This document shows positions 42,658 to 64,000 of a stretch of DNA of 64,000 nt, one piece after another. The notes beneath the pieces were generated by a model. It was not told where the DNA came from, did not search any database, and worked only from the letters and a program-made list of their open reading frames with translations. Each line of letters begins with the position of its first letter. Positions within the stretch are counted from its first letter, which is position 1. A program made the translations under genes and the position numbers. Source of the stretch: an uncultured Gammaproteobacteria bacterium (GTDB taxonomy: Bacteria; Patescibacteriota; Patescibacteriia; 2-01-FULL-39-33); the NCBI GenBank assembly GCA_964573235.1, contig CAZNIV010000001.1:3709-67708 (forward strand). Direction: 5' to 3'.

Positions 42658-42686
42658 TTGATTTTTAGCCTTTTTTTTGATATAAC
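42658..42686 (+). promoter_or_regulatory. Candidate sigma70-type promoter for the sugar-transferase/GT4 operon
   Basis: TTGATT, 17-nt spacer, TATAAC, lying 24 nt upstream of the ATG at 42711, within the divergent intergenic region shared with the S8 peptidase gene. Confidence 0.4.
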
Positions 42687-42710
42687 AAAGATATTAATTA
42701 CAACATTTTT

Positions 42711-44036: not shown

Positions 44037-44044
44037 AAATAAAT

Positions 44045-45193: not shown

Positions 45194-45205
45194 ATTTAAA
45201 CAACA

Positions 45206-45244
45206 CCAAAAAGCCGGCTACTTCGCCGGCTTTTATTATTTTCG
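45206..45244. terminator. Bidirectional intrinsic terminator between convergent GT4 (+) and Wzy_C-TPR (-) genes
   Basis: AAAA-AGCCGGC-tacttc-GCCGGCT-TTTTATTATTTT; perfect 7-bp GC stem flanked by A and T runs. Confidence 0.75.
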
Positions 45245-45251
45245 TAACCTA

Positions 45252-47369
45252 TTACTTTTTTACTTCCGAGGCTTTACTCTTAATAATTGCATCGTTTACC
45301 TGTTTTATAAACTTATCCGACCAACTCTTTAATTCCGGATCTAAATTAATTGCCTCATTAGCTTCGCTTAAGGCATAATCAAATTGGCCAGTCATAGCCA
45401 TAATCATAGCCAATTGACGATGCGATTCGGCATTCTTAGTATCTAATTTAACCGCCGCTAATGATGTCTCAATAGCTTTATTCATATAAGTAGCTACCCG
45501 ATCTTTTGATCCAATACTATTTAAATACATACCATAATATAAATAAGCATAAGCTACTTCATAATACATTAAAGGGCGACCTGGGCTTAATGATAAAATA
45601 TGCTCTGCTGCCTCTGCGCTTTCTTTAAATCTTTCTGGTTTAAATTGACCATAGGTAGTATTAAAACGCAACCAAACTAAATAATTAGAAACATTATTTG
45701 AATTTTCAGCAATCATCTTATCTAAAGAAATTTCTACGCGATCTGCAGTTTTTGCCACAAAATCCTGACTAATATTACTAGAATTAGCTATTTGATCTAA
45801 TAAATTAGCATACTGACGATAATACTCTTGATTACCTGGAGTATTCTCACTAATAGCATCTTCTAAGTTTTGCATCCTTTGTTCTATGTTCGCACCTTGG
45901 TCACCGAGCGCCTTAATTACCAACTTATTAGCATCTAACGGAATTAAAACCACGGCATATAAAGCCGGCACAAATAATAAAGTAAAACCGACAAGGGTGA
46001 TCATCTTAAATTGTGTCCGACCCAAAACTTCACCCTTACTTTCTGGATTAAACAAACCAATTAAGGCAATCATTAGAAATAAGGGAATGTATGTAACTAG
46101 GGCCTCAAAAATAAACATATTCTGAACACAATACGCCATCATGGCTAAAGTGGCCCAAACCGGAATAAAATAGCGATTACTTAGTTGAGGATTTTTAATA
46201 AAATGACGCCACAAGAAAAATAACGGCACAAATAATAACGCCAAATACGACAATAAACCAAAAATACCACCAGTCAATAAGCGATCCAAAAACATATTAT
46301 GTGAACGATCGAACCACGGTTCTGTCATGGTCGGCGAAAAATACTTATCAAACGGCTGATAAAAATTTTCATACCCCCAACCTAAAATTGGACGCTCTTT
46401 AAATCCCTGCCAAGCCGCCTTCCAAACAATCATACGATTCAAACCAGTTCCCTCGCTAACAGAAATACTAGTAATACGAGTTAATAAGCTACTATTTTTA
46501 ACAAAATCTGAATTTTTGTTTACAAATACCCATACTCCAAAAAAGATACTAGCGCCATAAGTTAAGCCAATAAACCAAAGCCAAAAACGCCTAACTGTTA
46601 AATTATAACTACCAATATAAAACAACACTCTTTGATGTGGCCAAAAGTAATAAACTAAATATAATCCAAAAAGCGCAATCGATAAAGCCAAGCCAATCAT
46701 GCCCCCGCGGGTTAAACTATAAAAAACAATGTAACTAGAAGCTAATATGCTAATAAAATAATAAATTCTAGCCCAAATATTCTGCCTCTTAAACAACAAG
46801 AATAAGGCAAAAAAAGCAACAAAAATCATATAACCAGCCATATAGCCAGCGTTGCCCAGTGAGCCAGAAATACGAGTACTGGCATCAAAATGAAACCAAC
46901 CCCATTTAAATAATTGATCTAGACCAATAAAAAACTGAGCCAAACCTGCCACTAAAAAAATATCCAAAGCCAACAACCAATCTTTCATTTTACGCAAAAA
47001 ACCAGTAGTAATTAATAAGAAGATAAATAAATGAATTAACAATAAAATACCTTCGCTGCGCTCATTATTACTCCAAAAACTATGATAAAAGTAATCTCCT
47101 GCCAAAGAAGCAATGGTAATTAATACCAAATAAAGTGCCATTAATCCGCCAGACAAGTTCAAACGTAAACGATATTCCGGATTATTTAAAGCCAATAGTA
47201 AATAAGCTAACAACATCACTTCTATTGTGGTGTTAAATATGTAAGTTTTAGTAGTGATAAATGGAAAAAACAAATGCCCATCAACAAACAAGGGTACAAA
47301 CATAATAACGCCCAAACCAAGCCATAACAGCGATTTAGCGATAAGGTTTACAGTCGGATTATTCTTCAT
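45252..47369 (-). CDS. Wzy_C (O-antigen ligase/polymerase-like) polytopic membrane protein with C-terminal TPR domain
   Basis: ~12 TM helices; Wzy_C loop motifs (SRISGSLGNAGY, ILGWGYENF, HNMFLDRLLTGGIFG with a conserved His); C-terminal TPR-like helical repeats. Confidence 0.6.
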   Translation of the reverse strand: MKNNPTVNLIAKSLLWLGLGVIMFVPLFVDGHLFFPFITTKTYIFNTTIEVMLLAYLLLALNNPEYRLRLNLSGGLMALYLVLITIASLAGDYFYHSFWSNNERSEGILLLIHLFIFLLITTGFLRKMKDWLLALDIFLVAGLAQFFIGLDQLFKWGWFHFDASTRISGSLGNAGYMAGYMIFVAFFALFLLFKRQNIWARIYYFISILASSYIVFYSLTRGGMIGLALSIALFGLYLVYYFWPHQRVLFYIGSYNLTVRRFWLWFIGLTYGASIFFGVWVFVNKNSDFVKNSSLLTRITSISVSEGTGLNRMIVWKAAWQGFKERPILGWGYENFYQPFDKYFSPTMTEPWFDRSHNMFLDRLLTGGIFGLLSYLALLFVPLFFLWRHFIKNPQLSNRYFIPVWATLAMMAYCVQNMFIFEALVTYIPLFLMIALIGLFNPESKGEVLGRTQFKMITLVGFTLLFVPALYAVVLIPLDANKLVIKALGDQGANIEQRMQNLEDAISENTPGNQEYYRQYANLLDQIANSSNISQDFVAKTADRVEISLDKMIAENSNNVSNYLVWLRFNTTYGQFKPERFKESAEAAEHILSLSPGRPLMYYEVAYAYLYYGMYLNSIGSKDRVATYMNKAIETSLAAVKLDTKNAESHRQLAMIMAMTGQFDYALSEANEAINLDPELKSWSDKFIKQVNDAIIKSKASEVKK

Positions 47370-49097: not shown

Positions 49098-52000
49098 TTA
49101 AAGTGATGGCGTTATTTTTAATTTTGTGGTTCTAGCTTCTAGGGTTGGCTTTAGTTGCACATAAAAATTATAATAGTTAGAAGTATAAACCTTATCATCT
49201 ATAGATATCTGGAATATACCATTGCAAGTCGTGGCACTACCATCGACAAAAACAAATTGATTTGAATCAATGGGCATTGAGAAGTTTTTAGAAAAAAATG
49301 GCTGCTGATCTTGTTTAATGGTTGGATTAGAATAACAAGTGAACTTATTATTATAATATGGCGCTAATTTGTCAAAAAATCTCTTTAATGTGAAATCAAC
49401 CGTATAAGATCCACTACCAATATCTGTGGCCGTCATTGAATCTACATCTAACATGTGACTTAATTCTAATGGAGCTGGGATAGTTTCACTCTCAATGTTT
49501 CCGTCAGTAGTAACTTTTTTAACGCTAACCTGGCAATTATCAGCAAGTAAATCAGACAATTTAACTCCATCAATGGTTATAACCTTAAACTGATAACCTT
49601 TTTTACCTCCAAGATCAACCCATTCTCCAAAATCATCTGGTCTATCGAGATTCATCTCTACGGGTAAATCATCCACAAAAAATGTCTGAGCAGAAACAGT
49701 TCTATCTTCTTCTTGGCTACCACATTTATAATGCGCCACTAAAGCATCTCCATTTTTAACATCACCTTTAACAAAAGCATAAATATCGAAAGGATTAGCT
49801 TCGTTACCAATCTTATTTGAGCTTATAGTACGGATACCATCACCTATTTTTAATTCCAAAGTGGCGGAGGAAATATGTATATAAAGGTTAGCAATAAAAT
49901 AGCTCTGGCAACCGTCTTGACGATAAGTAAATTGAAGTGTCTGATTTGCTTTTAGGTATATTCTCTTGTAAGGAATATTATAACCTAGATCAGTTGGAGG
50001 ATCAAACATATCTCCGCTGGTTAATTCTTTACCATCAACCAAATAAGAAAGACCTGAAATTGGGCGTGTATAAGGAAAATCTACGGCAATTTTTAAAGTG
50101 GTTTTATTAACAAAAGATTGAATGTCAAGCGTACTACTACAATAATAACTCCCGTTAGGAACTACTAACTTTTGAGTGTACTGCTCTTTATCTACAATAA
50201 AATCTTCTGTTACTAGCCTCTCACAGATACCATTATTATTCTTAAAATCTTTTGGACATATTACTGATTTACCGATAGTCACCCCTGTCGACTTGTCATT
50301 GAAACTTGTCAGATCAATACAAGTACCCTTTTTGGTAGCATCGTAAGTTGGTCCACCTGGTGAAAAAGATATAGTATAATCTTCTGGGAAATTAGAAGTT
50401 AATATAATCGAAGATAAGCCATAAAAACCAGTTGGAAATGATACGGTACTAGTGCCTTGTTTGTAATAATCAGTATAATATCCACTTTCATTTTTACAAC
50501 CGTAAGCATTATAGCCTTCGACTAGAGCCGTTTTATCGTAAGCCGTATAGGTAGTGCCGCTATTAGTTTGATCAGGGAATTTTGGAGTTCCAACACCCAA
50601 AGCATTGACAATACTACCAGAGAAAGAGTACCTCACCCCTCTAATTAAACCCTTTATAACCATCGGTTCACTACTAGTCGCTGAAAAATATATATCCTTT
50701 AAGCCATAGACTGGGTCATGAACATAAATAGTCTTTTTAGTCTTTGGATCGGTAGAAGTACTAACCCTATAAACAGAAACTAAATAACCAGTGATTGGCA
50801 AATTACCCGTATCAACACCTTGGGTATCAATAAAAATCTCTGCCCCACCCATAATATTGGTGACACTCTTTGGGGCGCTAGAAACAGAAGTTGTAATTGG
50901 AGTAATAGCCACTGATTTAGCGGAAGCTAGACTAGTACCGTAACCATTATTAACAGTCGCTGTGAAAGTATAAGCGACGCCCGGAAGAAAACCCGTAGGA
51001 AAAGTAACTGGGCTATAAGCACTGATGGCAATTAGTCTACCTTTATCGCTCTGGTCAATTGGAGTGGTTGGCTCGGCTATAACTGTATATTTAATTGGTG
51101 AAGCGCCACTCTTATTTTCGGGCATAAGAATATCAACCTGAACACCAGATGATGTGGCGAGAAAATAATTAGCAAAGGTTTTATAGCCATTTGCATAAGC
51201 GTGGGGTAAAACGGAACTTGGCGTAGCTGGTCCAACCGGGGGAATAACCTGAATTGATGAGGATTTAATACTGGTGCTTTGACCATTATAATTAGCCAAA
51301 GATACATTAAAGGTATAGTAAGCGCCTGGTTCGAATTTACTAGAAACAATAATGGGCGAGCCAACTTTAGAAGAGCCGCCACCAACAAGAGAAGAATTAG
51401 CAACACAGTCTGGACAATTCTTATAAGTACCCACCGACTGATACGCAACATAAGTGTTTGTCGTCTGGGTTTTGGCATTACGACAAACATCCACAGTAGA
51501 ATTGGTAGTACAACCAAGAATACTTCCTTTGTCTATAGGTTCAGTAAAGGTTAGTTTGATTTGGGGATTAGCAGTTTTATTTGGATATAGGTCACCACAA
51601 GTCCAAACATATGAAGGAGGTGTAATTCCAAGAGTAGCTTTTTCGCATTGAGTTGGATTTCTAACGGGCAATGAAACTGAAGCTAACAAATTAGTTGGGG
51701 GGTTGGGAGCAATCTTGGTATAGCACTTACCATCACCACCCGAAACACCAGGAGCACTACAAGCTGATGCTCCACAAGTTGGCGGATTATTCATACCATT
51801 AACACAAACACACGATGTACCCGATAATTTAGTACCAGAGGGACAAGTAGTTACGGAAGGAGGGGTACAAGTTGGCGGATTAGTGCCACCATTAGCGCAA
51901 ACGCAAGTATTATTGCTAGATAAAATAGTTTTTCCACTACAAACTGGCGTGGTTGACAAAGTACAAGTTGGTGGATTAGTCTTGCCATTAGCGCAAACAC

Positions 52001-52727
52001 AATTGGATCCTGAACGAATCGTACCAGAAGGACAAGTAGCTACTGGAGGGGTACAGGTTGGTGGATTAGTACCACCATTAGCGCAAACGCAAGTATTATT
52101 ACTAGACAGGATAGTTACACCACCACAAACTGGCGTAGTTGGCAAAGTGCAAGTTGGTGGATTGGTTTTACCATTAGCGCAAACACAGGCATTACCTGAC
52201 AAATAAGTTCCCGCAGCGCAAGCCATAGGGGGAGTACATGTAGGGTAATTCTTTCCACCATTAGAACAAACGCAACTATTAGATGCAGTAGAAAAGAAGC
52301 CAACAGAAGCACAAGGCGCTACTGGCAAGGTACAGGTTGGTGGGTTAGTTTTACCATTAGAACAAACGCAAAAACCATTAGATAAAAAAGTGCCGACAGC
52401 ACAAGTTTTTGGAGTGGAGCAAATCGGATAATCGTTAGCACTATTAATACAAACACATTGATTGTTAACAATTTTAGCATTGGCTGGGCAAATAATACCA
52501 TTACCTACCGACGGAACAATGCTACACGTTGGGTAATTAGTCGCTCCGTTTGAACAAGCACATGTACCATTAACCACTTTAGCTGTCGCTGGACAAACGA
52601 CCTGAGTTGAAACCGAACTAATAGCCGCAAAGGCCAATCCCCCAGTCACTGCCAAGGCTAGGGTTAAAACAATCGCTTTTGTACTAATTTTTGTTAAAAT
52701 CCCAACTGACATTTGCGTTTTTGTCAT
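49098..52727 (-). CDS. Giant (1209 aa) secreted/surface protein with ~12 tandem Cys-rich ~33-aa modules followed by a beta-rich region
   Basis: Signal/TM segment at the N-terminus; repeated C-x(7-9)-CxCxNGxTN(P/Y)PTC(T/S) modules at aa ~45-330; a strong intrinsic terminator follows downstream. Confidence 0.7.
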   Translation of the reverse strand: MTKTQMSVGILTKISTKAIVLTLALAVTGGLAFAAISSVSTQVVCPATAKVVNGTCACSNGATNYPTCSIVPSVGNGIICPANAKIVNNQCVCINSANDYPICSTPKTCAVGTFLSNGFCVCSNGKTNPPTCTLPVAPCASVGFFSTASNSCVCSNGGKNYPTCTPPMACAAGTYLSGNACVCANGKTNPPTCTLPTTPVCGGVTILSSNNTCVCANGGTNPPTCTPPVATCPSGTIRSGSNCVCANGKTNPPTCTLSTTPVCSGKTILSSNNTCVCANGGTNPPTCTPPSVTTCPSGTKLSGTSCVCVNGMNNPPTCGASACSAPGVSGGDGKCYTKIAPNPPTNLLASVSLPVRNPTQCEKATLGITPPSYVWTCGDLYPNKTANPQIKLTFTEPIDKGSILGCTTNSTVDVCRNAKTQTTNTYVAYQSVGTYKNCPDCVANSSLVGGGSSKVGSPIIVSSKFEPGAYYTFNVSLANYNGQSTSIKSSSIQVIPPVGPATPSSVLPHAYANGYKTFANYFLATSSGVQVDILMPENKSGASPIKYTVIAEPTTPIDQSDKGRLIAISAYSPVTFPTGFLPGVAYTFTATVNNGYGTSLASAKSVAITPITTSVSSAPKSVTNIMGGAEIFIDTQGVDTGNLPITGYLVSVYRVSTSTDPKTKKTIYVHDPVYGLKDIYFSATSSEPMVIKGLIRGVRYSFSGSIVNALGVGTPKFPDQTNSGTTYTAYDKTALVEGYNAYGCKNESGYYTDYYKQGTSTVSFPTGFYGLSSIILTSNFPEDYTISFSPGGPTYDATKKGTCIDLTSFNDKSTGVTIGKSVICPKDFKNNNGICERLVTEDFIVDKEQYTQKLVVPNGSYYCSSTLDIQSFVNKTTLKIAVDFPYTRPISGLSYLVDGKELTSGDMFDPPTDLGYNIPYKRIYLKANQTLQFTYRQDGCQSYFIANLYIHISSATLELKIGDGIRTISSNKIGNEANPFDIYAFVKGDVKNGDALVAHYKCGSQEEDRTVSAQTFFVDDLPVEMNLDRPDDFGEWVDLGGKKGYQFKVITIDGVKLSDLLADNCQVSVKKVTTDGNIESETIPAPLELSHMLDVDSMTATDIGSGSYTVDFTLKRFFDKLAPYYNNKFTCYSNPTIKQDQQPFFSKNFSMPIDSNQFVFVDGSATTCNGIFQISIDDKVYTSNYYNFYVQLKPTLEARTTKLKITPSL
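51740..52600 (-). repeat. Tandem coding DNA repeats (~99 nt unit in a ~190-200-nt higher-order repeat, ~85-90% identical) inside the Cys-rich giant protein gene
   Basis: For example 51841..52000 versus 52031..52190: ggacaagtag...gttggtggattagt...ccattagcgcaaac... recurs. This also produces the repetitive antisense ORF at 51883..52206. Confidence 0.8.
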
Positions 52728-52766
52728 ATTAATTATATTCGAAGATTAAACTAAATAATTTATAAA

Positions 52767-53867
52767 TTAAACCCATTCCTTAATCACCTTCTCAACATCA
52801 CCAGAATCTACGGTTACCACTCCAGTACTACTTAAATCTTTTTCTATTCTCTCACGGATTTCTATTAGCTTTATTTTTTCTTTTTCTGACTTACATGCCA
52901 ATATTTCCTGATCTTTTTGTTGAATTTTTTTCCACAAATCTTTAACCTCCAAATGGGCTGAGGCTGCCACCTGATAAAGAACACTAGGAAGTGCTGGGTG
53001 TAAATGCGCCACCTTAACCATAGCTGCCGCCTCGTCTAAAGCATCCAAAGCCTTATCTGGTAGCTTTCTATTCTTAATCATTTTTTCGGTTAATTTAACG
53101 GCCATTTCTAGAGCCGAATCGGTAAACTCAACCTTATGATATTCTCTATATTTATTCTTAACCCCCTTAAGAATTGTCATGGTTTCTTTGATTGTTGGCT
53201 CTCTTACTTCAATTAATTGAAAACGGCGCTCTAACCCAAGATCGGTTTTAAAATATTTTTCATATTCTTCAAAGGTAGTAGCACCAATCATTTGTAAGTC
53301 ACCACGCGCTAAGGCCGGCTTTAAAATATCAGATAAATTAATCGATCCCTCTGATCCCTGTGATTGAATTAAAGAATGTACCTCATCCACAAATAAAATA
53401 ATTGATCGATTAGAGTTGACTATCTCTTGAACAATCTTTTTAGCTCTCTGTTCAAATTCACCACGATACTTAGTGCCCGACATTAAAGTAGCCACATCTA
53501 AGGCCAAGACTCGCTTACCCAATAATGCCTCAGGCACATCGCCACGAGCAATACGCTGAGCAAAGCCTTCCACGATAGCGGTTTTACCCACACCAGGGGC
53601 ACCAATTAAAATAGCGTTATTTTTTTCTCGGCGCGATAAAATCTGAGTCAATTTACGAACTTCTTCTTCTCGTCCGATAACCGGATCTATTCGGCCTTTT
53701 TCAGCAAGGTCTGTAAAATTACTAGAATACTGATCAAGAAATGGCGAGCGAGAACCATGGTAATTAGCAGGCATTGCCATAATGCCACCACTATTGCGTT
53801 TTACTAAAAAATATATTACCGCCGCCGCCACTACAATTAAAGCGAATAGATACTGTGAAGTAAACAT
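52767..53867 (-). CDS. Membrane-anchored AAA+ ATPase consisting of a ClpA/ClpB first nucleotide-binding domain (D1) only
   Basis: N-terminal TM helix; ILIGAPGVGKTAIVE Walker A; Walker B FVDEVH; alignment to ClpB D1 plus the start of the coiled coil, then the protein ends. No D2 is present. Confidence 0.7.
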   Translation of the reverse strand: MFTSQYLFALIVVAAAVIYFLVKRNSGGIMAMPANYHGSRSPFLDQYSSNFTDLAEKGRIDPVIGREEEVRKLTQILSRREKNNAILIGAPGVGKTAIVEGFAQRIARGDVPEALLGKRVLALDVATLMSGTKYRGEFEQRAKKIVQEIVNSNRSIILFVDEVHSLIQSQGSEGSINLSDILKPALARGDLQMIGATTFEEYEKYFKTDLGLERRFQLIEVREPTIKETMTILKGVKNKYREYHKVEFTDSALEMAVKLTEKMIKNRKLPDKALDALDEAAAMVKVAHLHPALPSVLYQVAASAHLEVKDLWKKIQQKDQEILACKSEKEKIKLIEIRERIEKDLSSTGVVTVDSGDVEKVIKEWV

Positions 53868-53927
53868 AAAAAATAAATTTAAATTTAACCTTATTATACT
53901 ATTTTTGATTAATTATGACAAATTTAA

Positions 53928-53964
53928 TAAGGCTCTTACTATTTAGTTAGAGCCTTATTTTTAT
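53928..53964. terminator. Stable hairpin between the 1213-aa gene and the AAA+ gene (possible attenuator/terminator)
   Basis: 9-bp perfect stem TAAGGCTCT/AGAGCCTTA with a 12-nt loop. A T5 run follows on the + strand; the minus-strand side is only moderately U-rich. Confidence 0.4.
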
Positions 53965-53980
53965 CAAAACTTAAAGTTAT

Positions 53981-56900
53981 TTACTCCTTAGCATAATCCC
54001 CTTCAAACGAATTTTGAACCGTAATTATTTTAGTGGCATATTTTGTACCAAAAAGGGCTTTAGCCTCGTTGGCGTCAACTAATTTTAATTTTCCCATAGA
54101 AACAACTTTATACATTCTTGGGCTATTACTAAATTTAATTAAATTAGCACCTGGCTTAGCTGTTACATTGTCAGCAATTTCAATATTATCAAATTCACTT
54201 TGAGAAATTACTTTTAACTTATTATTAGCAGTAAGTTTTGACCAAGAAGCCGATTCCCAAGTTCTAAAAGTTACCAAGTTAGGGTAAAGATGCTTTTTTA
54301 AATCAGCATCGATGTAATAAATAGCACTGCTATCGGTAGTCTTAATGTAATCACGAAAAACCGGGGTATAAACGGTAATACTACCATCGGCATTAATAAT
54401 AGATGAATCAATATCATCTACAACGCCTTGAGTGGTGGTGGCATTATCAATATTTTCTTGATCTTTTAGAGTAATTGTCTTACTTAATACCAAAGAAGCA
54501 ATACCACTAGTGGAATAATATTTTAAATAAATTGTATATTGACCATTAATTTGAGGTAAGGCGAAAGAAATCTTTGACTTATGCGGCAAAACGCTAACAT
54601 TAGTAAAATTACTATTTAACGAAATAGCATAGCCACTAACAGTTGCTGGATCACCATTCATGGTAATATCTAATACTGAAGAATTGGTTGAGGTGGCCCC
54701 ATTATTAACCAACAAAGATAATGGCACCCCGTAAAGACCAGTTGGGGTAACGGAAGCTGAGCCACCTCCACCACCTCCGCCTCCGCCGCCAGTATCACTA
54801 GTAATATTCATCAATCCACAATTCAAATGCATCGATAAAGAACCGGAAGTTACTGTTACACTCGCCGTCTTAGCTCCAGAAGATGAATAATCTTTATTTA
54901 TCGTAGCTACTGTTCCCGCTAAGCCGTCGGTACCTGTCCAAAAATAAGTAAAAATACCATTTCCTCCAGAAGCTTGAACTGACCAATTTACTCTAGTTCC
55001 CGTAATTGCAGAAGTGGTATTAGGACTACAAGAAGCAGTGACATTGGGAGTAATTACTGTGATACCAGGAATCTTATATCTAGAAATAGTTCCTTTAAGG
55101 AAATAATAAATATAAACATCACTTATATCAAAGCCACCGTTAATTGTGCCTTCGCCAATAACCTTAATAGAATAACTATTATTTCTTGGATCTATCGCAA
55201 ACACACCATTACTTGCCAATCCCCAAATTCTACCGTCTGGACCAACTTTCAAAGCACTATCGGGTGCACCCCTTAATACAGGGATATTATTCAAAAAAGT
55301 TATTTCATGAGTAGCTGGATCAAATTGGAATATTTTTGTATAAAAACCACCCATTTCAACAGCGGTTCCGTAAACCTTTCCATCTGGCGTAGTAACTAAA
55401 CTTTTAATTTCTGAAGTATTACTAAGTTCAGATGATGTATAGGATATGGCTTTAGCAATTGGATCCCAAATAAATATTTTAGCGGAAGTGTTTGGAGTAG
55501 CAGTAGACCCTTCACCACCCCTAATACTAGTGCCTCCGATAATCTTTCCATTCCAATTAGTTAGTGAAATCACCGCTTGATTAGAAATTATGTTTTCGTA
55601 AACAGTAATCTCCTTAGTGTCTGGGTTCCATACAGAAAAGGTCCCTCCCAGTTTACCATAACCACCAACAGCACCAATATATACTAAGCCATCATCACCA
55701 TAAACCATGCCTCTCGGCCTCCAAGCAATGGGAATATTTGTACCCTGATCAGACTTAAGGCCCGGCGCCGGATTTAATAAAGGCGAAGATAAATTTGTAT
55801 TTACCGCCTTACTTGTATCAAATATCAATAAACGCCCGCCGAAATAACTAGCCCCCAATAATGAAGATTCCCCGTAAAGTAGATATGAATATATTTGACC
55901 AAAATTAGAATTGCCAACTTCTATAATCTGTTTAGTATCGGGATCTACCTTGAAAAAAAACCCAGAAACATATGTGCCAGAATACAATTTTTTATCTTGC
56001 CCCACTATCAACCTCTGTAACATAACCTCTTTTGTAGGCCTTTCTTTTTCAAAACTAACTGAAATAACTTTATTCTCGACTGTACTATAATATCCAATCT
56101 CAGATTTTATATTGTCTATCCCCAAATATTTTCCATTATAAATTCTACCAGCAGAACTGGTTTTAAAATCTGCAAAAGCTATTTCAGTGGCTACACCATC
56201 TTTCAAGCTAAAATATTTTTTTGTTGCACTCCCATTAGTAAGTATTTCTATTTGAGCAGCCACCCCACCATCAGAGGTTATTCCTCCATCTTTAGAAGTC
56301 TGATAAACACGACCAAATTGTTCATTCACGGTTGCGGGATAATCAAGAATTGTTCTATAAGTACCATCAGCAATTTTATATGCCACTACTTTTTGTCTAG
56401 TTGAACCTACGCCAGCATAAACATATCCATCTTTTCCGGCCGCGATAAAATGAACATAACTCTCGGTCGGCTCAATTCTACCAATATCAGTAATTTTTGA
56501 AGTTACTGGATCGTAACTAAAAAGCTTGGCATTAGGATAACTGCCACCATACAATTTTCCATCGCTACCCCAAGCTAACCCATATATCCAGGTTGTCGTA
56601 GCTGTATCTACCGCTCCGAGATCATCAATCGTTTCTTTATTTGCATCTAAATTTGTATTTATTCTAAGTAAATGACCGGTTGGATATCCACCCAAATATA
56701 TATTATTATCTGGCCCGATTATCATTCCATTATCTCCCTGATCAGTAAAAGCTTCTGATTGAAAATGTTTTTCTATTTTACCGGTAATATTATTAACCCT
56801 AATAACCGATGTTTTATTATGCGCATAGCCTATACTAATATAGGTACTATCATTTAAAACGACGTAATTTAAAACCAGGCCATTACCTGTATATGTCGCA

Positions 56901-57622
56901 ATTTTTTCTACCGTGCCCTCTGCGGCGTCTGGTAAGCTACCATCTTCATTATTATAACAAATACCATTACTACTAATTACATCAATGGCACTATCACAAC
57001 ACTTAGGAGTACAACCCACACTACTACATTGAGTAATATAATATTCACCAGAATCATCGCCACAACAACCCGACTGACCAAGGCTAGTATATTCACCAAA
57101 GGCCATATTTTCTCCGCTCAAAACACCACCACCTTCTTTTCCACAAACAGCAGGCGAACTACAATAAGCACTTGACCAACGATCGCAATCCAGCCAAGTT
57201 CCACCGGTACCACCACCATACTGCCAACAGAAAGCCTTGTTATCATTTCCTCCAGGATTCAAATCAGAATACATTCCTAATTTATTGACATTATTCCCTG
57301 AAGCAAAACATTTTCCATTTTTATCTACGCAATCACTTGAATTAGAACAACAAGACTGAACCGTACCATTAGCCCACTCTACCCCCGGAATATAACTTAC
57401 AGCTATTGATGATTTTAAAAATGGGTTAGAGCTATTTGCCTCACACACGGACTGGGCATAGGCAGGATATCCTTTTATTACTTCGGATATTAACTGGCGA
57501 GGTGCTTGAAATTTAAAGAAAAGGCCACTGGCAATAATTAAAATACTAAAAAATAAAACGCCACTTAAAATAAATTTTCTACTTATCTTGTAAGTTATTT
57601 CTTTAAATTTTGAGTAAAGCAT
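53981..57622 (-). CDS. Giant (1213 aa) membrane-anchored surface protein: Cys-rich region, beta-propeller-like repeats, PKD-like domain, poly-Gly tract, C-terminal shared module
   Basis: N-terminal TM segment; multiple CC/CxC clusters; repeated YxxG/LYSG propeller-like motifs; GTRVNWSVQASGGNGIFTYFW (PKD-like); G11 tract; C-terminal SAIYYID...AKALFGTKYATKIITVQNSFE. Confidence 0.7.
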   Translation of the reverse strand: MLYSKFKEITYKISRKFILSGVLFFSILIIASGLFFKFQAPRQLISEVIKGYPAYAQSVCEANSSNPFLKSSIAVSYIPGVEWANGTVQSCCSNSSDCVDKNGKCFASGNNVNKLGMYSDLNPGGNDNKAFCWQYGGGTGGTWLDCDRWSSAYCSSPAVCGKEGGGVLSGENMAFGEYTSLGQSGCCGDDSGEYYITQCSSVGCTPKCCDSAIDVISSNGICYNNEDGSLPDAAEGTVEKIATYTGNGLVLNYVVLNDSTYISIGYAHNKTSVIRVNNITGKIEKHFQSEAFTDQGDNGMIIGPDNNIYLGGYPTGHLLRINTNLDANKETIDDLGAVDTATTTWIYGLAWGSDGKLYGGSYPNAKLFSYDPVTSKITDIGRIEPTESYVHFIAAGKDGYVYAGVGSTRQKVVAYKIADGTYRTILDYPATVNEQFGRVYQTSKDGGITSDGGVAAQIEILTNGSATKKYFSLKDGVATEIAFADFKTSSAGRIYNGKYLGIDNIKSEIGYYSTVENKVISVSFEKERPTKEVMLQRLIVGQDKKLYSGTYVSGFFFKVDPDTKQIIEVGNSNFGQIYSYLLYGESSLLGASYFGGRLLIFDTSKAVNTNLSSPLLNPAPGLKSDQGTNIPIAWRPRGMVYGDDGLVYIGAVGGYGKLGGTFSVWNPDTKEITVYENIISNQAVISLTNWNGKIIGGTSIRGGEGSTATPNTSAKIFIWDPIAKAISYTSSELSNTSEIKSLVTTPDGKVYGTAVEMGGFYTKIFQFDPATHEITFLNNIPVLRGAPDSALKVGPDGRIWGLASNGVFAIDPRNNSYSIKVIGEGTINGGFDISDVYIYYFLKGTISRYKIPGITVITPNVTASCSPNTTSAITGTRVNWSVQASGGNGIFTYFWTGTDGLAGTVATINKDYSSSGAKTASVTVTSGSLSMHLNCGLMNITSDTGGGGGGGGGGSASVTPTGLYGVPLSLLVNNGATSTNSSVLDITMNGDPATVSGYAISLNSNFTNVSVLPHKSKISFALPQINGQYTIYLKYYSTSGIASLVLSKTITLKDQENIDNATTTQGVVDDIDSSIINADGSITVYTPVFRDYIKTTDSSAIYYIDADLKKHLYPNLVTFRTWESASWSKLTANNKLKVISQSEFDNIEIADNVTAKPGANLIKFSNSPRMYKVVSMGKLKLVDANEAKALFGTKYATKIITVQNSFEGDYAKE
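54761..54790 (-). repeat. GC-rich (GGN)10-11 triplet tract encoding poly-Gly (G11) in the 1213-aa protein
   Basis: ccacctccaccacctccgcctccgccgcca on the + strand, inside an AT-rich gene. Confidence 0.8.
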
Positions 57623-57658
57623 GAAATTAATTGGTTTTTATAAAAACTATGTTTATAT

Positions 57659-57687
57659 ATTTTACCATATTTTTGTGATTATGATAA
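57659..57687 (-). promoter_or_regulatory. Candidate promoter for the 1213-aa surface protein gene
   Basis: On the minus strand: TTATCA, 17-nt spacer, TAAAAT, about 37 nt upstream of the ATG at 57622 and downstream of the terminator at 57741..57770. Confidence 0.35.
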
Positions 57688-57740
57688 TAATTTACTTATA
57701 ATTATCGCCTTGTTTTATTGATTATTTTATTTTCTTTTTT

Positions 57741-57770
57741 TGTTTAAATAAAAAACCCCGATTAACGGGG
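57741..57770 (-). terminator. Intrinsic terminator for the 77-aa membrane protein gene
   Basis: CCCCG-attaa-CGGGG hairpin; on the minus strand it is followed by TTTTTTATTTAAAC. Confidence 0.65.
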
Positions 57771-57786
57771 TGTAATTAATGGGGCG

Positions 57787-58020
57787 TTACGCTTTTTTCT
57801 GATACCGCCCATGGCGACACAGATGAAAAAGGTATATATATACCAAGAAGGCCAATATACAGCCTATGTATATTAAGTAAAACATCGAATAGAAGAAACA
57901 GGCCGTAACATGAATGGCGATTATAGACGCAATTACAACTACAAAGGTTACTAAATGCATGGGGTGTTGTTTCCTTATTTCTTTGTTAATACTTATTAAA
58001 GAGCTAGTATTATTTAACAT
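57787..58020 (-). CDS. Small (77 aa) two-TM membrane protein with its own terminator
   Basis: Hydrophobic ORF; a perfect hairpin CCCCGattaaCGGGG plus a T-run on the minus strand lies 17 nt downstream of the stop. Confidence 0.45.
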   Translation of the reverse strand: MLNNTSSLISINKEIRKQHPMHLVTFVVVIASIIAIHVTACFFYSMFYLIYIGCILAFLVYIYLFHLCRHGRYQKKA

Positions 58021-58080
58021 TTTTTGTTATTTATGTCAATGTAATTAGGTGATTTTTCATAAATTAGTTATAATTACCCC

Positions 58081-58752
58081 ATGAAACTCAATCCTAAATC
58101 AAAATATTTGCAGATTGCTTTTAATAGCCCGATTGATGAAGTTAAGGCTATGCTTGATTTACTCCCCGCTTCCGATAAAATCATTATTGAAGCAGGAACG
58201 CCCTTTATTAAGCAATATGGTAATTTTGGCATAACCGCCATTAATACTTGGTGGCGAGAAAAATTAGGCAAAAAAGGCTACATTGTTGCCGATTTAAAAT
58301 GCATGGATAGAGGTTCAACCGAAGTGGCTACCGCCGCCCAAGCTGGCGCTTCTGCCGTTACCTGTTTAGGCTTGGCGCCAATTGAAACTATCAACGAATT
58401 TATCAAAAAATGCCAAGAGCTAAAAGTTGATTCCATGATCGACATGATGAATGTAGAATTTCCTTTTGAAATATTGCAAAAATTAACCAAATTACCAAAT
58501 ATTGTTGTTTTACATCGTGGCGTTGATGAAAACACCCATAACCGAGAAAAACAACTTCCCCACCACTTAATAAACCGCATTAAGGGCGCCTATGGTAAAG
58601 TTTTAATTTCTATTGCGGGTGGCGAAACAACTAAAGATATAACTAGAACTTTTTTTAATAATGCCGATATTGCTGTGGTGTGGCGACCTTTTTATGAAAC
58701 CCCAGAAAAAACTACGCTATTAGCCGAAGATTTTTTGAAGTTGCTAAAATAA
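58081..58752 (+). CDS. 3-hexulose-6-phosphate synthase / 3-keto-L-gulonate-6-P decarboxylase-like protein (OMPDC suprafamily), paralog 1
   Basis: LQIAFNSP (beta-1), IIEAGTPFIK, DLKCMD (DxKxxD), LHRGVDE and IAGG align with HPS/KGPDC (LQVAIDL, IIELGTPLIK, DMKTMD, HAGLDE, VAGG). The beta-1 Asp is Asn. Confidence 0.75.
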   Translation: MKLNPKSKYLQIAFNSPIDEVKAMLDLLPASDKIIIEAGTPFIKQYGNFGITAINTWWREKLGKKGYIVADLKCMDRGSTEVATAAQAGASAVTCLGLAPIETINEFIKKCQELKVDSMIDMMNVEFPFEILQKLTKLPNIVVLHRGVDENTHNREKQLPHHLINRIKGAYGKVLISIAGGETTKDITRTFFNNADIAVVWRPFYETPEKTTLLAEDFLKLLK

Positions 58753-58754
58753 TT

Positions 58755-59831
58755 ATGAATCTAGAAAAACAAAAAAAATCAAACGAGAAAAATTTTCAGC
58801 AAATGATTTCGTCGCTTTTTCCCTTCGTATTTGTTGCTGTGTTTATGGCTTTTAAATTTAATATCATACTTGGTTTTATTATTTTATTTTTTATTATTAT
58901 ACTAATCAAAGGCAAAAAGGCTTTTATTCCTGCCATCAAAGAAATTATCCGACAAGCAAATGAGGAGCAAAAAAGAGCCCAGACTAATTATCAAAATAAT
59001 AAAACAAGCTCAAAAAATATTCGCGGTACTTTTTCTATCGATTCCGAGATTGACGAAATAAACCCACCAACTACATCACTCAATAATCAAAATCCCGAAA
59101 CCAAAAGTGAATCAGAAACCCCCGGAATTTCGATAATCCCCTTTACTGCCTTGTCTTTCATGCCATCGGTCGCACCTAGGCTAGAAAAACGAAAAAGATA
59201 TTTGCAAATTGCCCTTAACGGCAAAATGAGCGAAGCAGAATCTATTGCCAGAAATTTGCCAACCTCTGATCGTATTATTGTAGAAGTAGGTACGCCACTT
59301 CTCAAGGCTCGCGGAATTAATGCTATTGAACGCCTTCGCGCCATTATTGGCGAAAATACTTACATTGTGGCCGATAATAAATGTGCTGACTTAGCCGATC
59401 GCGAAGTGGCTATGATGGCTAAAGCGGGCGCTAATGGCGCCACCTGCCTAGGTGTAGCCCCAATTGAAACCATTAACAGTTTTATCGCCGAATGCCAAAA
59501 GCAAAATATCGACGCTATGATTGACATGATGAACGTAGAAAATCCACTCATGGTTTTACAAAAGTTAAAAACCATGCCTAAGGTGGTAATTGTTCATCGA
59601 GGCGTTGATGAAAGCGAAATTTCTAAAGAAAAACAAATCCCCTACTACCAAATCAAACAAATCAAAGGCAATTATAATATTATGGTAGCGGTAGCCGGTG
59701 GCGATACTATCAAAGAAGCGCAAAGCGCTTTATTTAACGATGCCGACATTGTAATTACTTGGAAAGATTTTTATCAGTCTAATCAAAAAACGGCCCAGTT
59801 GGCTGAGTCGTTTTTGAGTGAAGTTAAATAA
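58755..59831 (+). CDS. HPS/KGPDC-like protein, paralog 2, with N-terminal TM anchor and low-complexity linker
   Basis: The C-terminal ~215 aa are collinear with paralog 1 (LQIALNGK, IVEVGTPLLK, DNKCAD, VHRGVDE, VAGG). The N-terminal 140 aa comprise a TM helix plus an N/S/T/E-rich linker. Confidence 0.7.
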   Translation: MNLEKQKKSNEKNFQQMISSLFPFVFVAVFMAFKFNIILGFIILFFIIILIKGKKAFIPAIKEIIRQANEEQKRAQTNYQNNKTSSKNIRGTFSIDSEIDEINPPTTSLNNQNPETKSESETPGISIIPFTALSFMPSVAPRLEKRKRYLQIALNGKMSEAESIARNLPTSDRIIVEVGTPLLKARGINAIERLRAIIGENTYIVADNKCADLADREVAMMAKAGANGATCLGVAPIETINSFIAECQKQNIDAMIDMMNVENPLMVLQKLKTMPKVVIVHRGVDESEISKEKQIPYYQIKQIKGNYNIMVAVAGGDTIKEAQSALFNDADIVITWKDFYQSNQKTAQLAESFLSEVK

Positions 59832-59834
59832 ATT

Positions 59835-60647
59835 TTATTTTCCCTTAATCGTTTGGGCAATCGCCTGAAAACCACTCATTATTTCAACTGGCAAAGCAAA
59901 TATAACCGTCTTCGATGGATCTGGGTTAATCTTTTCAATCGTCTGTAAAGTTCTCATAGATAAACCACCCGGAGTAGAACTAAGCGCCTTAGCCGCCTGC
60001 GCTAAGCGTTCAGAAGCCTGATACTCACCTTCGGCCCTAATAATAATGGCGCGTCTTTCTCTTTCGGCTTCGGCTTGTTTAGCCATAACGCGTTTCATAT
60101 CGGCTGGCAATTCAATATCTTGAATTTTAATATCGGTTACTAAAATACCCCAAGACTGAGTAGCTAAGCTAACAATTTTTTGCACTTCCTCGGCAATCTT
60201 TTCTCTTTCCGATAAAAGCGGATCTAACTCGATAGCGCCAATCACATCACGAAGCGCCGCTTGAGCGTATTGCGAAACGGCCAAAGTATAATTTTTAATA
60301 TTCAACATAGCATCTTCAGCGCTTTGCACCTGAAAATATACCACAGCATTAATACCCACTGGCACATTATCTTTAGTAATAACTTCTTGCTGTGGAATAT
60401 CGGTGGTAGTAATACGCAAATCTACTTTCATCATCTTTTGAAAACCAACCAGAATCCAAGTTAAACCGGGATTACGCGTGCCGGTATATTTACCTAAAGT
60501 TAATACCACTCCCCGTTCATATTGATTAATTACTCTTAAACCTGGGATAACCACAAACACCACCAAAAACGCAATCACGGCTAGAACAATTGCCGGAAGA
60601 AATGAGATTAATTCTAGTTCCATAAAATTATTTTTTATATTTGGCAA
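59835..60647 (-). CDS. SPFH/band-7 (stomatin/prohibitin-like) membrane protein
   Basis: N-terminal TM segment; an SPFH core (VDLRITTTDIPQQEVITKDNV...) and a C-terminal coiled coil. Confidence 0.85.
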   Translation of the reverse strand: MPNIKNNFMELELISFLPAIVLAVIAFLVVFVVIPGLRVINQYERGVVLTLGKYTGTRNPGLTWILVGFQKMMKVDLRITTTDIPQQEVITKDNVPVGINAVVYFQVQSAEDAMLNIKNYTLAVSQYAQAALRDVIGAIELDPLLSEREKIAEEVQKIVSLATQSWGILVTDIKIQDIELPADMKRVMAKQAEAERERRAIIIRAEGEYQASERLAQAAKALSSTPGGLSMRTLQTIEKINPDPSKTVIFALPVEIMSGFQAIAQTIKGK

Positions 60648-60705
60648 TTTAGATCAATTGCCGATTTTATTAAGTTATTTTTATTATAACATAGCCAACA
60701 AAATC

Positions 60706-60748
60706 AGTAAAACACAAAAACTCCCACTCTTGCGAGCGGGAGTTTTGT
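60706..60748. terminator. Bidirectional intrinsic terminator downstream of the 1058-aa surface protein gene
   Basis: 11-bp stem AACTCCCACTC/GAGCGGGAGTT (one mismatch) with loop TTGC; flanked by A5 upstream and T-runs on both strands. Confidence 0.7.
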
Positions 60749-60790
60749 ATCAAACAGCTAAGCTATTTGAAGTTTTTAATCTAAATTAGA

Positions 60791-63700
60791 TTAATTCTTC
60801 AAAGTTACAGTAGCAGTAGATGGGTTACCGACAACTTTCAAACCAGTGATAACTTCAGTTTGAGTGCCGTTACCATTAGCATCATCACCATAGACAGCTT
60901 CGTCGATGGAGTAAGTGATGTCACCAATATTGCTATTAGCAGACAAAGTTACAGCATCAGTTGAGCTAGCTGCAGTAGCGTTCTTTACAGTTAAATATCT
61001 GTAAGAACCGCCCTGGATAGATGAACTAAAGTTGGTACCGAAATCAACAGAAGAAGAAGTGGTAGAAATATCAGTATTAAAGCTGGACTGACCATCGCCA
61101 GAAACAGCCAAACCGAAAGTAGCTACATTAGAACCACCGTCTTTGACGAATTTAACTCCAGTCAAAGTGATAGCTTTTGTACCAGTATTGGTGATCTTGA
61201 AGATACCCAAAGTGTTACCAGCAGCTTGAGACAATTGAGTAGCAGTTGTAGGAGAAACTGCATCAACAGTAACGATAGCTGGAGCAATGTAAGTATAACC
61301 AGTGCCAATAGCGGAACCTGCAACAGTAGAAGCAGCGTTACCAGAAGTTGCACCAACTGCAATAATATCAGCAGTAGAAGAAGCAATTCTGAAAGCGAAA
61401 TCATGGCCTAATTGAGCAATACCCTTAGCGCCGATATCAGCCTTTACGTATAAAGTGATAGCAGTAGCATCGGTAGTACCGATGGTAGAAGCTAACAAGT
61501 TATCAGTAGAAGTGAAGGTAACGGAACAAACGTTAGAAGAACAAGAATCCATCTGGTTAGCAGTCAAAATAGGCTGACTAGCAGAACCAACGTAAACTCT
61601 AATGTTTCTAATATCGTTCATAACCAAGGCAGTACCAGTAGCGGTTAACTTCAAAGTTCTTAACTTCAAAGCTTCGTTTCTAGCAGTCATGGTTAAGGCA
61701 AAGTAAGTACCATCATTTGTGCCAACAGTTTTAACCTGAGCATTAGATGGAGTAGCAGTAGAACCAGTAACTAAAGCGATGTTCAAACTACCAGAAGTAG
61801 TCAAAGCAATTGCCTGACCAGATCCAGCCTTTGTAGCATCAACAGTGTTGCCAGTATCCTGACCAACAGCAGAAACGCCGTATGCAGAGAAAGTATGTGT
61901 AGCGGTTGAAGTAGAACCAGTGATATCACCGATCAACTTAACTACTACATTAGTATTCTTAGCTACAACAATCGGAGTCTTGAAGTTATAAGTTGTAGAA
62001 GCGGCATTGTTTGAAGTGCTGTTAGAGGTTTCTACGGTTACGCCGTTGATTTGCATTCTCAAGTTAGAAACCTGAGTTGCTACACCAGCGCCACCCATTA
62101 AATCATTCATAACAATGGAAGAAACTTTTACAGCTTCACCAGAGTTATTAGCGTTTAATTCAATATTAGCCAACTCATGATCGTTCACATTAACAGTAGT
62201 GTGAGCAACTGGAGTAGATAATGTTGTTACTTTTAATACACCAATTTGAACATTGATAGTATTAGCAGTAATTGCAGAAACAGTAGGATCGATAATATCG
62301 TTGGTTAACAATCTCTTTACGCTAGTAACATCAAAAGTAGCAACAAAGCTATTTGAAGAAGTAGCAGTAGAAGCGACGTTAGCTTCTACAGTAACAACTG
62401 CAGTCTGACCAGCGGTCAAAGTGTAGTAGGACTGTAAAGTAACTTCATGATTACCAGCGGTTGGAGTTTCACTGTAGACAGAAGAACCATTTACTTTTAC
62501 ATAAACAGAACCAGTCAAACCAGTAACCTGATTCAAACCAAGGGAAATCTTTCTTAATTCCATGTTTTCACCTGAAGCTTTGACATCATATTTAGCCAAA
62601 ACTACATTAGAAGTACCTGGAGTAACAGCTGCATTTGGAGAATCAGAAGACTTAGCTAAGGTCATAGTACCCTTGCCAATAGTCACCTTATTCACGCCAG
62701 TACCCATTGGGAAACCGGAAGCAGTGTCGATCAAAGAAGCGCCAGTATCGTTGCCAGTAACTACGATATCATAATTGTTATAAACAACTAAGTCGATAGT
62801 TCTGTCAGTAGTACCAACTACTTTCAATCTGACAGTCAAATCCTTGTTCATACCCTTATCGATAGCGTAAGGAGTAGCCAAGTTAAAGGTAACATAATTA
62901 CCCTTTGGCTGAGCAGTTGCCAAAACAGCGCCAGTTGAATCAACTAATTCAACATCTTTATAGTCAGTATCAGCAGCATTACCATTGTTATACAAAGTAA
63001 CGCTAGATACTTTAACTTTTTCAGCAGAACCAGTTAAGATGTTAATCTTAGTGATGTCTTGAGCGCTAGTAGCATCAATGTTCATAGTAGCAGTAGCACC
63101 AACTACATACTTCATAGAAGCGGTTACTGTACCAACAGTGTTGTTAGAGTTGATCAAAGACATAGAATTGCCCCAAATTGGGAAAGAACCACCAATAGTT
63201 GCATTGGAAGTAATTGCTGCAACGGAAGCAATACCAAACTGGACAGTGCCAGAAATAGCAGCAGAACCAGTGTTGATTCTAACGGTCAAAGTTACAGTGC
63301 TATTAGCAGGAACTTTAACAGCGTCAGTGTTGCCAAACAATAATACAACTTCATTATCAGCATTGATAGAAGAAGCCATATTACCATGTCTAACACCAGC
63401 GTTATCAATAATATCAATGCCAGTAACGGTATTGGTATTAGAAACGAAACCAGCTTTCTTTAATGTCAAAGCAGTTACTGTGACATCAGCATTGCCAGCG
63501 GTTAAATTTACTTTCAATACTGGATTGAAAGCGGTACCGGAAGCGATGTTAGTAGAAGCTGGAGTAGCAGCAGCCAAAGCGACTGTTAAACCACCAACAA
63601 CTGGAGTAGTAGAACCACCTGCAGTAGCGGTAGCAACTGGGTTAGCAATTGCAGCTACTTCAGCGGTAATAGAAGCGCCAGTAGTGTAAGTCATAGTAGA

Positions 63701-63967
63701 AGGAATAGTCATTACAGCGCTAGAACGTAACTTGTTAGCTACGAAAGCATCGGAAGTGACTAAGCTCTTCTGACCATTTTGAATCATGTATACGTCCTCA
63801 GAACCCTGGTACTTAACCAAAGAACCATTAGGTAAATTGGAAGAAGTGGTCAAGGAAACGCCATCCTTAGTATAGTTAGTCTCAAAAGAAGACTGGATGG
63901 TGACTACTTTGGAGGCATAAGTTGTACCGTAAAGAGCCTTGGCAGTTGCATCATCGAGCAAGCTCAA
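60791..63967 (-). CDS. Large (1058 aa) low-complexity T/S/A/G/V/N-rich, Cys-free surface (S-layer-like / Ig-like beta-sandwich repeat) protein; N-terminus carries the shared module
   Basis: N-terminus is MSLLDDATAKALYGTTYASKVVTIQSSFE...PNGSLVKYQGSEDVYMIQNG. There is an in-frame stop 9 codons upstream of the Met and no signal peptide. A strong terminator follows downstream. Confidence 0.6.
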   Translation of the reverse strand: MSLLDDATAKALYGTTYASKVVTIQSSFETNYTKDGVSLTTSSNLPNGSLVKYQGSEDVYMIQNGQKSLVTSDAFVANKLRSSAVMTIPSTMTYTTGASITAEVAAIANPVATATAGGSTTPVVGGLTVALAAATPASTNIASGTAFNPVLKVNLTAGNADVTVTALTLKKAGFVSNTNTVTGIDIIDNAGVRHGNMASSINADNEVVLLFGNTDAVKVPANSTVTLTVRINTGSAAISGTVQFGIASVAAITSNATIGGSFPIWGNSMSLINSNNTVGTVTASMKYVVGATATMNIDATSAQDITKINILTGSAEKVKVSSVTLYNNGNAADTDYKDVELVDSTGAVLATAQPKGNYVTFNLATPYAIDKGMNKDLTVRLKVVGTTDRTIDLVVYNNYDIVVTGNDTGASLIDTASGFPMGTGVNKVTIGKGTMTLAKSSDSPNAAVTPGTSNVVLAKYDVKASGENMELRKISLGLNQVTGLTGSVYVKVNGSSVYSETPTAGNHEVTLQSYYTLTAGQTAVVTVEANVASTATSSNSFVATFDVTSVKRLLTNDIIDPTVSAITANTINVQIGVLKVTTLSTPVAHTTVNVNDHELANIELNANNSGEAVKVSSIVMNDLMGGAGVATQVSNLRMQINGVTVETSNSTSNNAASTTYNFKTPIVVAKNTNVVVKLIGDITGSTSTATHTFSAYGVSAVGQDTGNTVDATKAGSGQAIALTTSGSLNIALVTGSTATPSNAQVKTVGTNDGTYFALTMTARNEALKLRTLKLTATGTALVMNDIRNIRVYVGSASQPILTANQMDSCSSNVCSVTFTSTDNLLASTIGTTDATAITLYVKADIGAKGIAQLGHDFAFRIASSTADIIAVGATSGNAASTVAGSAIGTGYTYIAPAIVTVDAVSPTTATQLSQAAGNTLGIFKITNTGTKAITLTGVKFVKDGGSNVATFGLAVSGDGQSSFNTDISTTSSSVDFGTNFSSSIQGGSYRYLTVKNATAASSTDAVTLSANSNIGDITYSIDEAVYGDDANGNGTQTEVITGLKVVGNPSTATVTLKN

Positions 63968-64000
63968 TTTTGCGCCAGGAGTTACAGCGTAAACTCTAGG

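Follow-up and report, generated by a model that had tools for sequence, protein, structure and literature searches.

A stomatin-linked family of hexulose-phosphate-synthase-like proteins with an altered beta-1 residue in Patescibacteria and DPANN archaea

We analysed a tandem gene pair in a 64,000-nt stretch of DNA (the window; positions 3,709 to 67,708 of contig CAZNIV010000001.1, assembly GCA_964573235.1) from an uncultured bacterium that GTDB places in the Patescibacteriota. Both genes encode proteins resembling HPS (3-hexulose-6-phosphate synthase) as well as KGPDC (3-keto-L-gulonate-6-P decarboxylase), and a convergent SPFH/Band 7 gene follows them (Table 1). The initial annotation, a reading of the letters and their open reading frames (ORFs), had placed the two + strand ORFs correctly, and the motifs that it quoted are all present: IIEAGTPFIK in paralog 1 and IVEVGTPLLK in paralog 2, likewise ADLKCMD and ADNKCAD, IAGG and VAGG, AFNSP and ALNGK, and HRGVDE in both. 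Two nucleotides separate the paralog 1 stop from the paralog 2 start. The convergent SPFH gene does end where that annotation had it, its stop codon (59835-59837) 3 nt from that of paralog 2, and a consensus scan of the junction gave only weak 5-bp hairpins; this spacing puts the stop codons too close together for a terminator to fit in between, so the two transcripts must overlap or end within each other's coding sequence. The SPFH product is 270 aa from a TTG at 60647, or 262 aa from an ATG at 60623 in the public annotation. The window has about 36% G+C and a gene content that includes surface-polysaccharide genes and giant orphan surface proteins, and close homologs of both paralogs are named Patescibacteria group and Candidatus phyla in public records.

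Table 1. Features of the locus, in window coordinates.
Feature	Position	Strand	Basis	Key residues or remarks
Paralog 1 (fam1), soluble HPS-like TIM barrel, 223 aa	58081..58752	+	ORF, PF00215, NF009833, AlphaFold2 (AF2) model, Foldseek	Asn15 (beta-1 end, codon 58123-58125), E37, D71-x-K73-x-x-D76, D121, H145-R-G-V-D-E, A179-G-G-E182, W201-R202
Paralog 2 (fam2), membrane-anchored HPS-like protein, 358 aa	58755..59831	+	ORF, PF00215, NF009833, conservation, AF2 model	Asn155 (codon 59217-59219), E177, D207-N-K209-x-x-D212, H281-RGVDE, A314-G-G-D317, W336-K337
Hydrophobic helical hairpin of paralog 2 (aa 18-52)	58806..58910	+	Homolog conservation, AF2 model, hydropathy scan	Turn at N36
Juxtamembrane helix (aa 57-86) and low-complexity N/S/T/E-rich disordered linker (aa 86-140) of paralog 2	58911..59177	+	AF2 model, homolog comparison	
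Stomatin-type SPFH/Band 7 gene	59835..60647	-	PF01145, stomatin structure matches	N-terminal transmembrane segment; convergent
Weak 5-bp GC hairpin with T-runs on both strands, in the last 40 nt of paralog 2	59791..59807		Consensus scan	Possible terminator of the stomatin transcript
Promoter-like site TTAATA-16-TATTAT, 68 nt upstream of paralog 1	57986..58013	+	Consensus scan, weak	9/12 matches

Both paralogs belong by Pfam score and barrel fold to the orotidine 5'-monophosphate decarboxylase (OMPDC)/HUMPS suprafamily: PF00215 matches paralog 1 at E 9.9e-18 (65.3 bits) and paralog 2 at E 4.6e-18 (66.4 bits), the gathering threshold being 27. In NCBIfam each scores best against NF009833, which models the HPS domain of archaeal Fae/Hps (167.5 and 170.5 bits). 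The HxlA model TIGR03128 (EC 4.1.2.43) gives 95.6 and 99.4 bits, about half of its 200-bit equivalog cut-off, and the KGPDC (UlaD/SgbH) models give 34-52 bits against curated cut-offs of 250-294. The KGPDC determinants Glu112, Arg139 and Thr169 are replaced in paralog 1 by D121, V148 and A179. The AF2 model of paralog 1 is a (beta/alpha)8 barrel of eight beta/alpha units (mean predicted local distance difference test, pLDDT, 89.9); Foldseek matches it at probability 1.00 to HPS, KGPDC and OMPDC, with HPS 3F4W, KGPDC 1XBZ/1XBX and HPS 3AJX best. The call of HPS/KGPDC-like proteins was thus borne out by both profile searches and structure ranking. PyrF proper is excluded because every HPS and KGPDC entry comes ahead of OMPDC in the structure ranking and because Glu (E37/E177) rather than Lys stands at the end of beta-2; no PyrF model occurs among the NCBIfam matches of either paralog. 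A role in anti-phage defence was also rejected, with no PADLOC match for either paralog or for the SPFH protein.

In an alignment of the family profile to PDB sequences, Asn15 and Asn155 fall on Asp8 of HPS (9lj9, 3f4w) and on Asp11 of KGPDC (1xbx), and Trp201 and Trp336 fall on the beta-8 Gly (G186) of HPS. The replacement of the beta-1 Asp by Asn in both copies, which the initial annotation had claimed, is therefore real and no alignment artefact; the proposal that the Asp would return under correct alignment fails against three solved families. Compared with the HPS signature in a published table of HPS and KGPDC functional residues (PMC5980557), 12 residues are identical and the only non-conservative changes are D8 to N and G186 to W, so that N15/N155 and W201/W336 stand where the HxlA active site has its beta-1 Asp and beta-8 Gly. 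The residues kept are A, E, G-T-P, D-x-K-x-x-D, L, H145 and the HPS-type D121 (E112 in KGPDC) and A179 (T169 in KGPDC). Val148, at the position of KGPDC Arg139, is also HPS-like. A literature search on the role of KGPDC Asp11 returned unrelated papers only.

The Asn is invariant in 120 of 120 homologs of each paralog (240 in total) and in all 139 readable copies from 83 non-redundant Patescibacteria loci; E, DxKxxD, D121, HRGVDE and AGG are invariant across the same 240 homologs. A search of 1.8 billion cluster representatives left a score gap, with the Asn family at 183 bits or more and canonical HPS at 171 bits or less, and a rough neighbour-joining tree has the Asn clade monophyletic with respect to Asp-bearing HPS. 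An apparent Asn in the archaeal Fae-Hps representative P0288 proved to be an artefact of a hidden Markov model column, since its sequence YLQIALDNP has the Asp. Three features switch jointly between the two groups: ALD to A(L/F)N, AGG[ILV] to AGG[D/E], and [IV]VG[RGS]xI to V(V/I)W(K/R)xF. In the AF2 model the switching positions lie at the ends of strands beta-1, beta-7 and beta-8, which run next to one another in a TIM barrel and make up the pocket's phosphate-loop side. This sub-site would thus be remodelled, and the new acidic residue after AGG may compensate for the lost beta-1 carboxylate.

The initial annotation gave paralog 2 a single transmembrane helix followed by a disordered N/S/T/E-rich linker. 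The linker was confirmed and the tether is real, being coding, conserved and predicted by AF2, but the anchor is a two-helix hairpin rather than one transmembrane helix. AF2 places helices at residues 3-35 and 37-52 (pLDDT 80-95) and at 57-86, then disorder at 86-140, with pLDDT below 50 for residues 86-125. The hairpin, with its F-x-I-N-P-x-x-G turn, is conserved in most fam2 homologs; the linker varies among them in length and sequence, and the RLEKRK(K/R)YL lead-in to beta-1 is conserved. Both flanks of the hairpin are net positive, so by the positive-inside rule both of its ends, and hence the catalytic domain of paralog 2, are predicted to be cytoplasmic. The anchor is lineage-specific, occurring in 33 of the 83 loci. 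An internal Met (M136) lies 13 residues ahead of the catalytic domain, and at some 15 two-gene loci the fam2 copy is short, about 218 aa, and lacks the anchor, as would be expected if the extension arose from a wrong start codon and the neighbouring SPFH gene were there by chance or hitch-hiking. The start-codon half of this explanation was rejected: the 135 codons of the extension have no stop in frame, against 4-19 in the other five frames (chance about 1.5e-4), the hairpin is conserved and confidently modelled, and M136 is not kept as Met in homologs.

The SPFH protein matches PF01145 at E 1.7e-39 (136 bits), has a hydrophobic segment at residues 14-34, and has structure matches to human stomatin (9oh9, E 1.4e-53) and Pyrococcus horikoshii stomatin (3bk6, E 8.8e-52). 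By homology it is a true stomatin orthologue. Its short, slightly acidic N-terminus, single hydrophobic segment and following basic stretch predict an SPFH domain on the cytoplasmic side, as for the catalytic domain of paralog 2. Neither paralog has a Pfam match to NfeD, and the locus is not a stomatin-NfeD operon. The stomatins of loci from the candidate phyla radiation (CPR) are 59-83% identical among themselves.

We examined the neighborhoods of the enzyme genes in 80 GTDB-representative loci together with those collected earlier; ten had no stomatin gene, eight of these at truncated contig ends, leaving 75 assessable. A stomatin gene adjoins the enzyme genes in 73 of them, convergent in 65 and co-directional in eight (five downstream, three upstream). 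The gap is at most 15 nt in 37 loci, and several stop codons overlap. Stomatin is the sole neighbor kept in the contexts of distant homologs, where the remaining flanking genes differ, and all-against-all clustering of the flank ORFs found no other conserved neighbor, the next cluster occurring in 14 of 84 loci. The association was also examined in reverse, an alignment of these stomatins being used to scan metagenome contigs: each of the 19 assessable close relatives (at least 300 bits against the window stomatin) adjoins Asn-type genes. At 14 of the stomatin loci with no enzyme gene the same-strand neighbors look heterogeneous. Adjacency this regular, amid otherwise unrelated flanks and in both gene orientations, makes chance or hitch-hiking very improbable, and together with the coding evidence for the tether it largely refutes that explanation as a whole.

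Seven more metagenome loci, with stomatins scoring 270-290 bits, have a divergent Asn-type gene directly downstream and co-directional (L109, L111, L114, L116, L119, L120 and L122). Four contigs that were looked up yielded five loci (L168-L172), all with a Band_7 to HPS-like operon and no SIS gene. The source names of this sister subfamily are mostly of DPANN archaea (Altiarchaeales, Aenigmarchaeota, Diapherotrites and Nanoarchaeota), with a few bins labelled Omnitrophica. Its 221-aa consensus reads RYLQIAFN(xD), IEAGTP, DLKTxD, H(K/R)GRDE(E) and AGG (AAGGvDL). At these loci the stomatin gene always comes first. The stomatins there are 51-58% identical to the CPR stomatin, which suggests that the whole module was transferred between domains. 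A pairing that outlasted spread between domains and several rearrangements argues strongly for functional coupling but does not prove physical contact. The initial annotation, for which the SPFH gene was a curiosity of spacing, had missed the single conserved partner of these enzymes across CPR bacteria and DPANN archaea.

Gene architecture varies among the 83 CPR loci: 33 have a soluble and a hairpin-anchored copy, 15 two soluble copies, 16 a single copy (a few of these on truncated contigs), 10 a single copy with an insertion after helix alpha-2, and 9 insertion variants within pairs. The insertion (L058, L060-L064, L066, L068 [L068:671-1465], L075-L077, L079, L082, L086) spans about 20-55 residues, in most cases some 40, is rich in Trp, Leu and Lys, and lies between helix alpha-2 and the DxK strand, giving an enzyme of about 260 aa. 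Speculatively, these insertions may be in-plane membrane helices, an alternative means of membrane binding where the hairpin is lacking. The paired genes are translationally coupled, with a median gap of 1 nt and overlaps in 16 of 57 pairs. Enzymes of the OMPDC suprafamily, such as KGPDC and OMPDC, form obligate dimers, each active site being completed by the second DxKxxD Asp of the partner subunit. Both paralogs keep this Asp. In one CPR lineage the anchored copy (L018:8663-9511) is degraded, with NKGSNE for HRGVDE, SGSQ for AGGD and VVGEDL for VVWKxF, next to an intact soluble copy, a pattern that makes sense if the anchored subunit can act mainly as a tether. The enzyme of the window is probably a heterodimer of soluble paralog 1 and anchored paralog 2, which would fit the trans-acting Asp kept in both, the tight or overlapping gene pairs and the degraded anchored copy. 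Single-copy lineages (among them metagenome-assembled genomes labelled Roizmanbacteria, Gottesmanbacteria and Beckwithbacteria) presumably form homodimers.

As to what the enzyme does, its best profile matches are HPS models, its nearest canonical relatives are archaeal Fae-Hps domains, and GTP, D121, V148 and A179 are kept. These points favor an ordinary HPS of the ribulose monophosphate (RuMP) route, working forward in formaldehyde detoxification or in reverse from fructose 6-phosphate to ribulose 5-phosphate as in archaea, with the Asn tolerated and the stomatin adjacency without mechanistic meaning. The presence of the family in DPANN archaea counts on the same side; these archaea are often without a pentose-phosphate pathway. 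However, the scores of 96-99 bits stand against an HxlA cut-off of 200, and the beta-1 Asp is replaced in every member along with two more changes on the phosphate-loop side. Bacterial hxlA normally adjoins or is fused with hxlB, yet a tblastn search whose query was the SIS domain of the HPS-PHI fusion P0390 gave no gene for 6-phospho-3-hexuloisomerase (PHI) or other SIS protein, either in the window or across 1.08 Mb flanking 86 related loci. An ordinary HPS would also leave unexplained the membrane anchors and the two-way linkage to stomatin in two domains of life, and we consider it rather unlikely, if still a serious contender. The RuMP-type bypass offered by the initial annotation is accordingly unsupported, given that the window and flanks have no PHI gene and that the scores are at half the HxlA cut-off; neofunctionalised paralogs and a complex at the membrane, which it offered beside the bypass, are better readings.

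Loss of an acid conserved throughout the suprafamily, together with the degraded motifs of the L018 anchored copy, could instead point to pseudoenzymes, that is sugar-phosphate-binding or structural adaptors that regulate or cap the stomatin assembly without turnover, and the partners of prokaryotic stomatins, NfeD for example, often have no metabolic role. Yet the metal ligands, the Lys, both Asp, the His and the AGG loop are invariant over hundreds of sequences in both paralogs, the pattern expected of an active enzyme, which makes pseudoenzymes improbable.

From the observed family and fold, residue pattern, anchor and gene linkage we infer catalysis, heterodimer formation, topology and stomatin contact: the genes would encode a specialised, still catalytic enzyme of the HPS/KGPDC branch that works together with a stomatin scaffold on the membrane's cytoplasmic face (probability roughly 0.6). 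By homology, the Glu and the first Asp of DxKxxD would bind Mg2+, and the Lys, the second Asp (from the partner subunit) and the His would act on the Mg-stabilised enediolate of a ketose-phosphate-like substrate. The sub-site at the ends of beta-7, beta-8 and beta-1 would be remodelled by the Asp to Asn and Gly to Trp changes and the new Asp/Glu after AGG, so that the physiological substrate or stereochemistry probably differs from that of ribulose 5-phosphate plus formaldehyde. The helical hairpin of paralog 2 and its flexible linker, about 85 residues long, would hold it at the cytoplasmic membrane face, and the enzyme would be a client or partner of the neighboring stomatin oligomer, in the slot that NfeD takes in other prokaryotic stomatin operons.

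Several points weigh against this specialised, stomatin-linked enzyme. The retained HPS-type residues are compatible with plain HPS activity, and the PHI negative covers the window and the 1.08 Mb of flanks rather than whole genomes. The mostly convergent orientation means that enzyme and stomatin are usually not co-transcribed, and adjacency is no proof of physical interaction. More than half of the loci lack the anchor, so the family can do without tethering. The proposed closeness of N15, E182 and W201 in space is taken from barrel topology.

The closest matches in both sequence and structure are the known HPS enzymes (HxlA; 3AJX, 3F4W, and 9LJ9, which is an HPS-PHI fusion) and the archaeal Fae-Hps proteins in their HPS domain. 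They have in common with the Asn family the fold and the branch of the OMPDC suprafamily, the Glu of IEAGTP, DxKxxD, D121 (D109 in HPS), the His of HxGxDE and the A-G-G loop. The Asn family differs in its beta-1 Asn, beta-8 Trp, acidic residue after AGG and scores under the curated cut-offs, as well as in having no PHI or Fae partner in the window or flanks, a tandem duplication with one anchored copy, and the stomatin linkage. KGPDC is likewise a dimeric, Mg-dependent enediolate enzyme with this barrel (TM-score 0.78), whereas D121, V148 and A179 are HPS-like states, found also in the engineered KGPDC mutant E112D/R139V/T169A. Stomatin-NfeD operons (P. horikoshii PH1511/PH1510) and the HflK/C-FtsH cage, an SPFH assembly with an enclosed client, also pair a stomatin-type SPFH gene with one specific partner that has a membrane anchor and a flexible linker, here known from the genes; the partner in the Asn family is a metabolic TIM barrel, not an NfeD protease/OB-fold or AAA protease, and is mostly convergent.

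Other features of the window were noted. An uncalled 77-aa ORF at 57787-58020 (-), with two hydrophobic helices, is divergent from paralog 1; among the fetched loci it occurs elsewhere only in L001, the public record of the same locus. A good terminator-like hairpin at 57755-57771 (6 bp, 5 of them GC, then a T-run) begins 16 nt past its stop. A motif some 30 residues long, AKAL(F/Y)GT.YA.K..T.Q.SFE..Y.K, is common to the two giant surface-type proteins flanking the module, at 53981-57622 (-; C-terminus) and 60791-63967 (-; N-terminal part). Pfam gives no match above threshold for either, the first having a sub-threshold PKD match (20.8 vs 27 bits); the second gene extends beyond the window end and is annotated publicly as 1181 aa. 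Upstream of these giant orphan proteins is a surface-polysaccharide cluster (39851-47369) encoding an NAD-dependent epimerase/dehydratase, a subtilase, a Bac_transf sugar transferase, a GT4 glycosyltransferase and a Wzy_C ligase-like protein. In the first 50 kb, a region with almost all of its genes on the minus strand, the + strand GC skew ranges from about -0.15 to about -0.31; it moves toward zero past about 50 kb (+0.03 to -0.23 in 2-kb windows over 50000-64000).

We found no description of the Asn-type HPS-like family or of its stomatin linkage in the searchable literature on CPR/Patescibacteria; the results suggest a known kind of enzyme in variant form, within a previously undescribed stomatin-enzyme module that crosses domains. 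Database labels for these proteins include 'Fae/Hps', 'KGPDC' and 'orotidine 5'-phosphate decarboxylase', so metabolic reconstructions of CPR and DPANN genomes may wrongly credit their bearers with a RuMP or pyrimidine step. The module is widespread in these two radiations of ultra-small, host-dependent microbes, whose conserved 'unknown' genes probably encode biology of the host-dependent lifestyle. As a tentative extension, CPR and DPANN might laterally exchange a two-component membrane module, in which a stomatin cage or scaffold is combined with a dedicated HPS-derived enediolate enzyme whose active-site acid has moved from beta-1 toward the beta-7 loop; its reaction could be one specific to an episymbiotic, scavenging way of life, taking place at the inner membrane face, such as the processing of an imported host sugar phosphate or head-group. 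If so, a prokaryotic stomatin would for the first time have a defined enzymatic partner besides NfeD, and the reaction would be new to the OMPDC suprafamily. The function of prokaryotic stomatins has long been open, and a strictly co-inherited enzyme partner provides a concrete, testable handle on it. To the OMPDC suprafamily, a textbook example of how enzymes diverge in evolution, a variant with an invariant Asp to Asn replacement and compensating changes would add a new branch.

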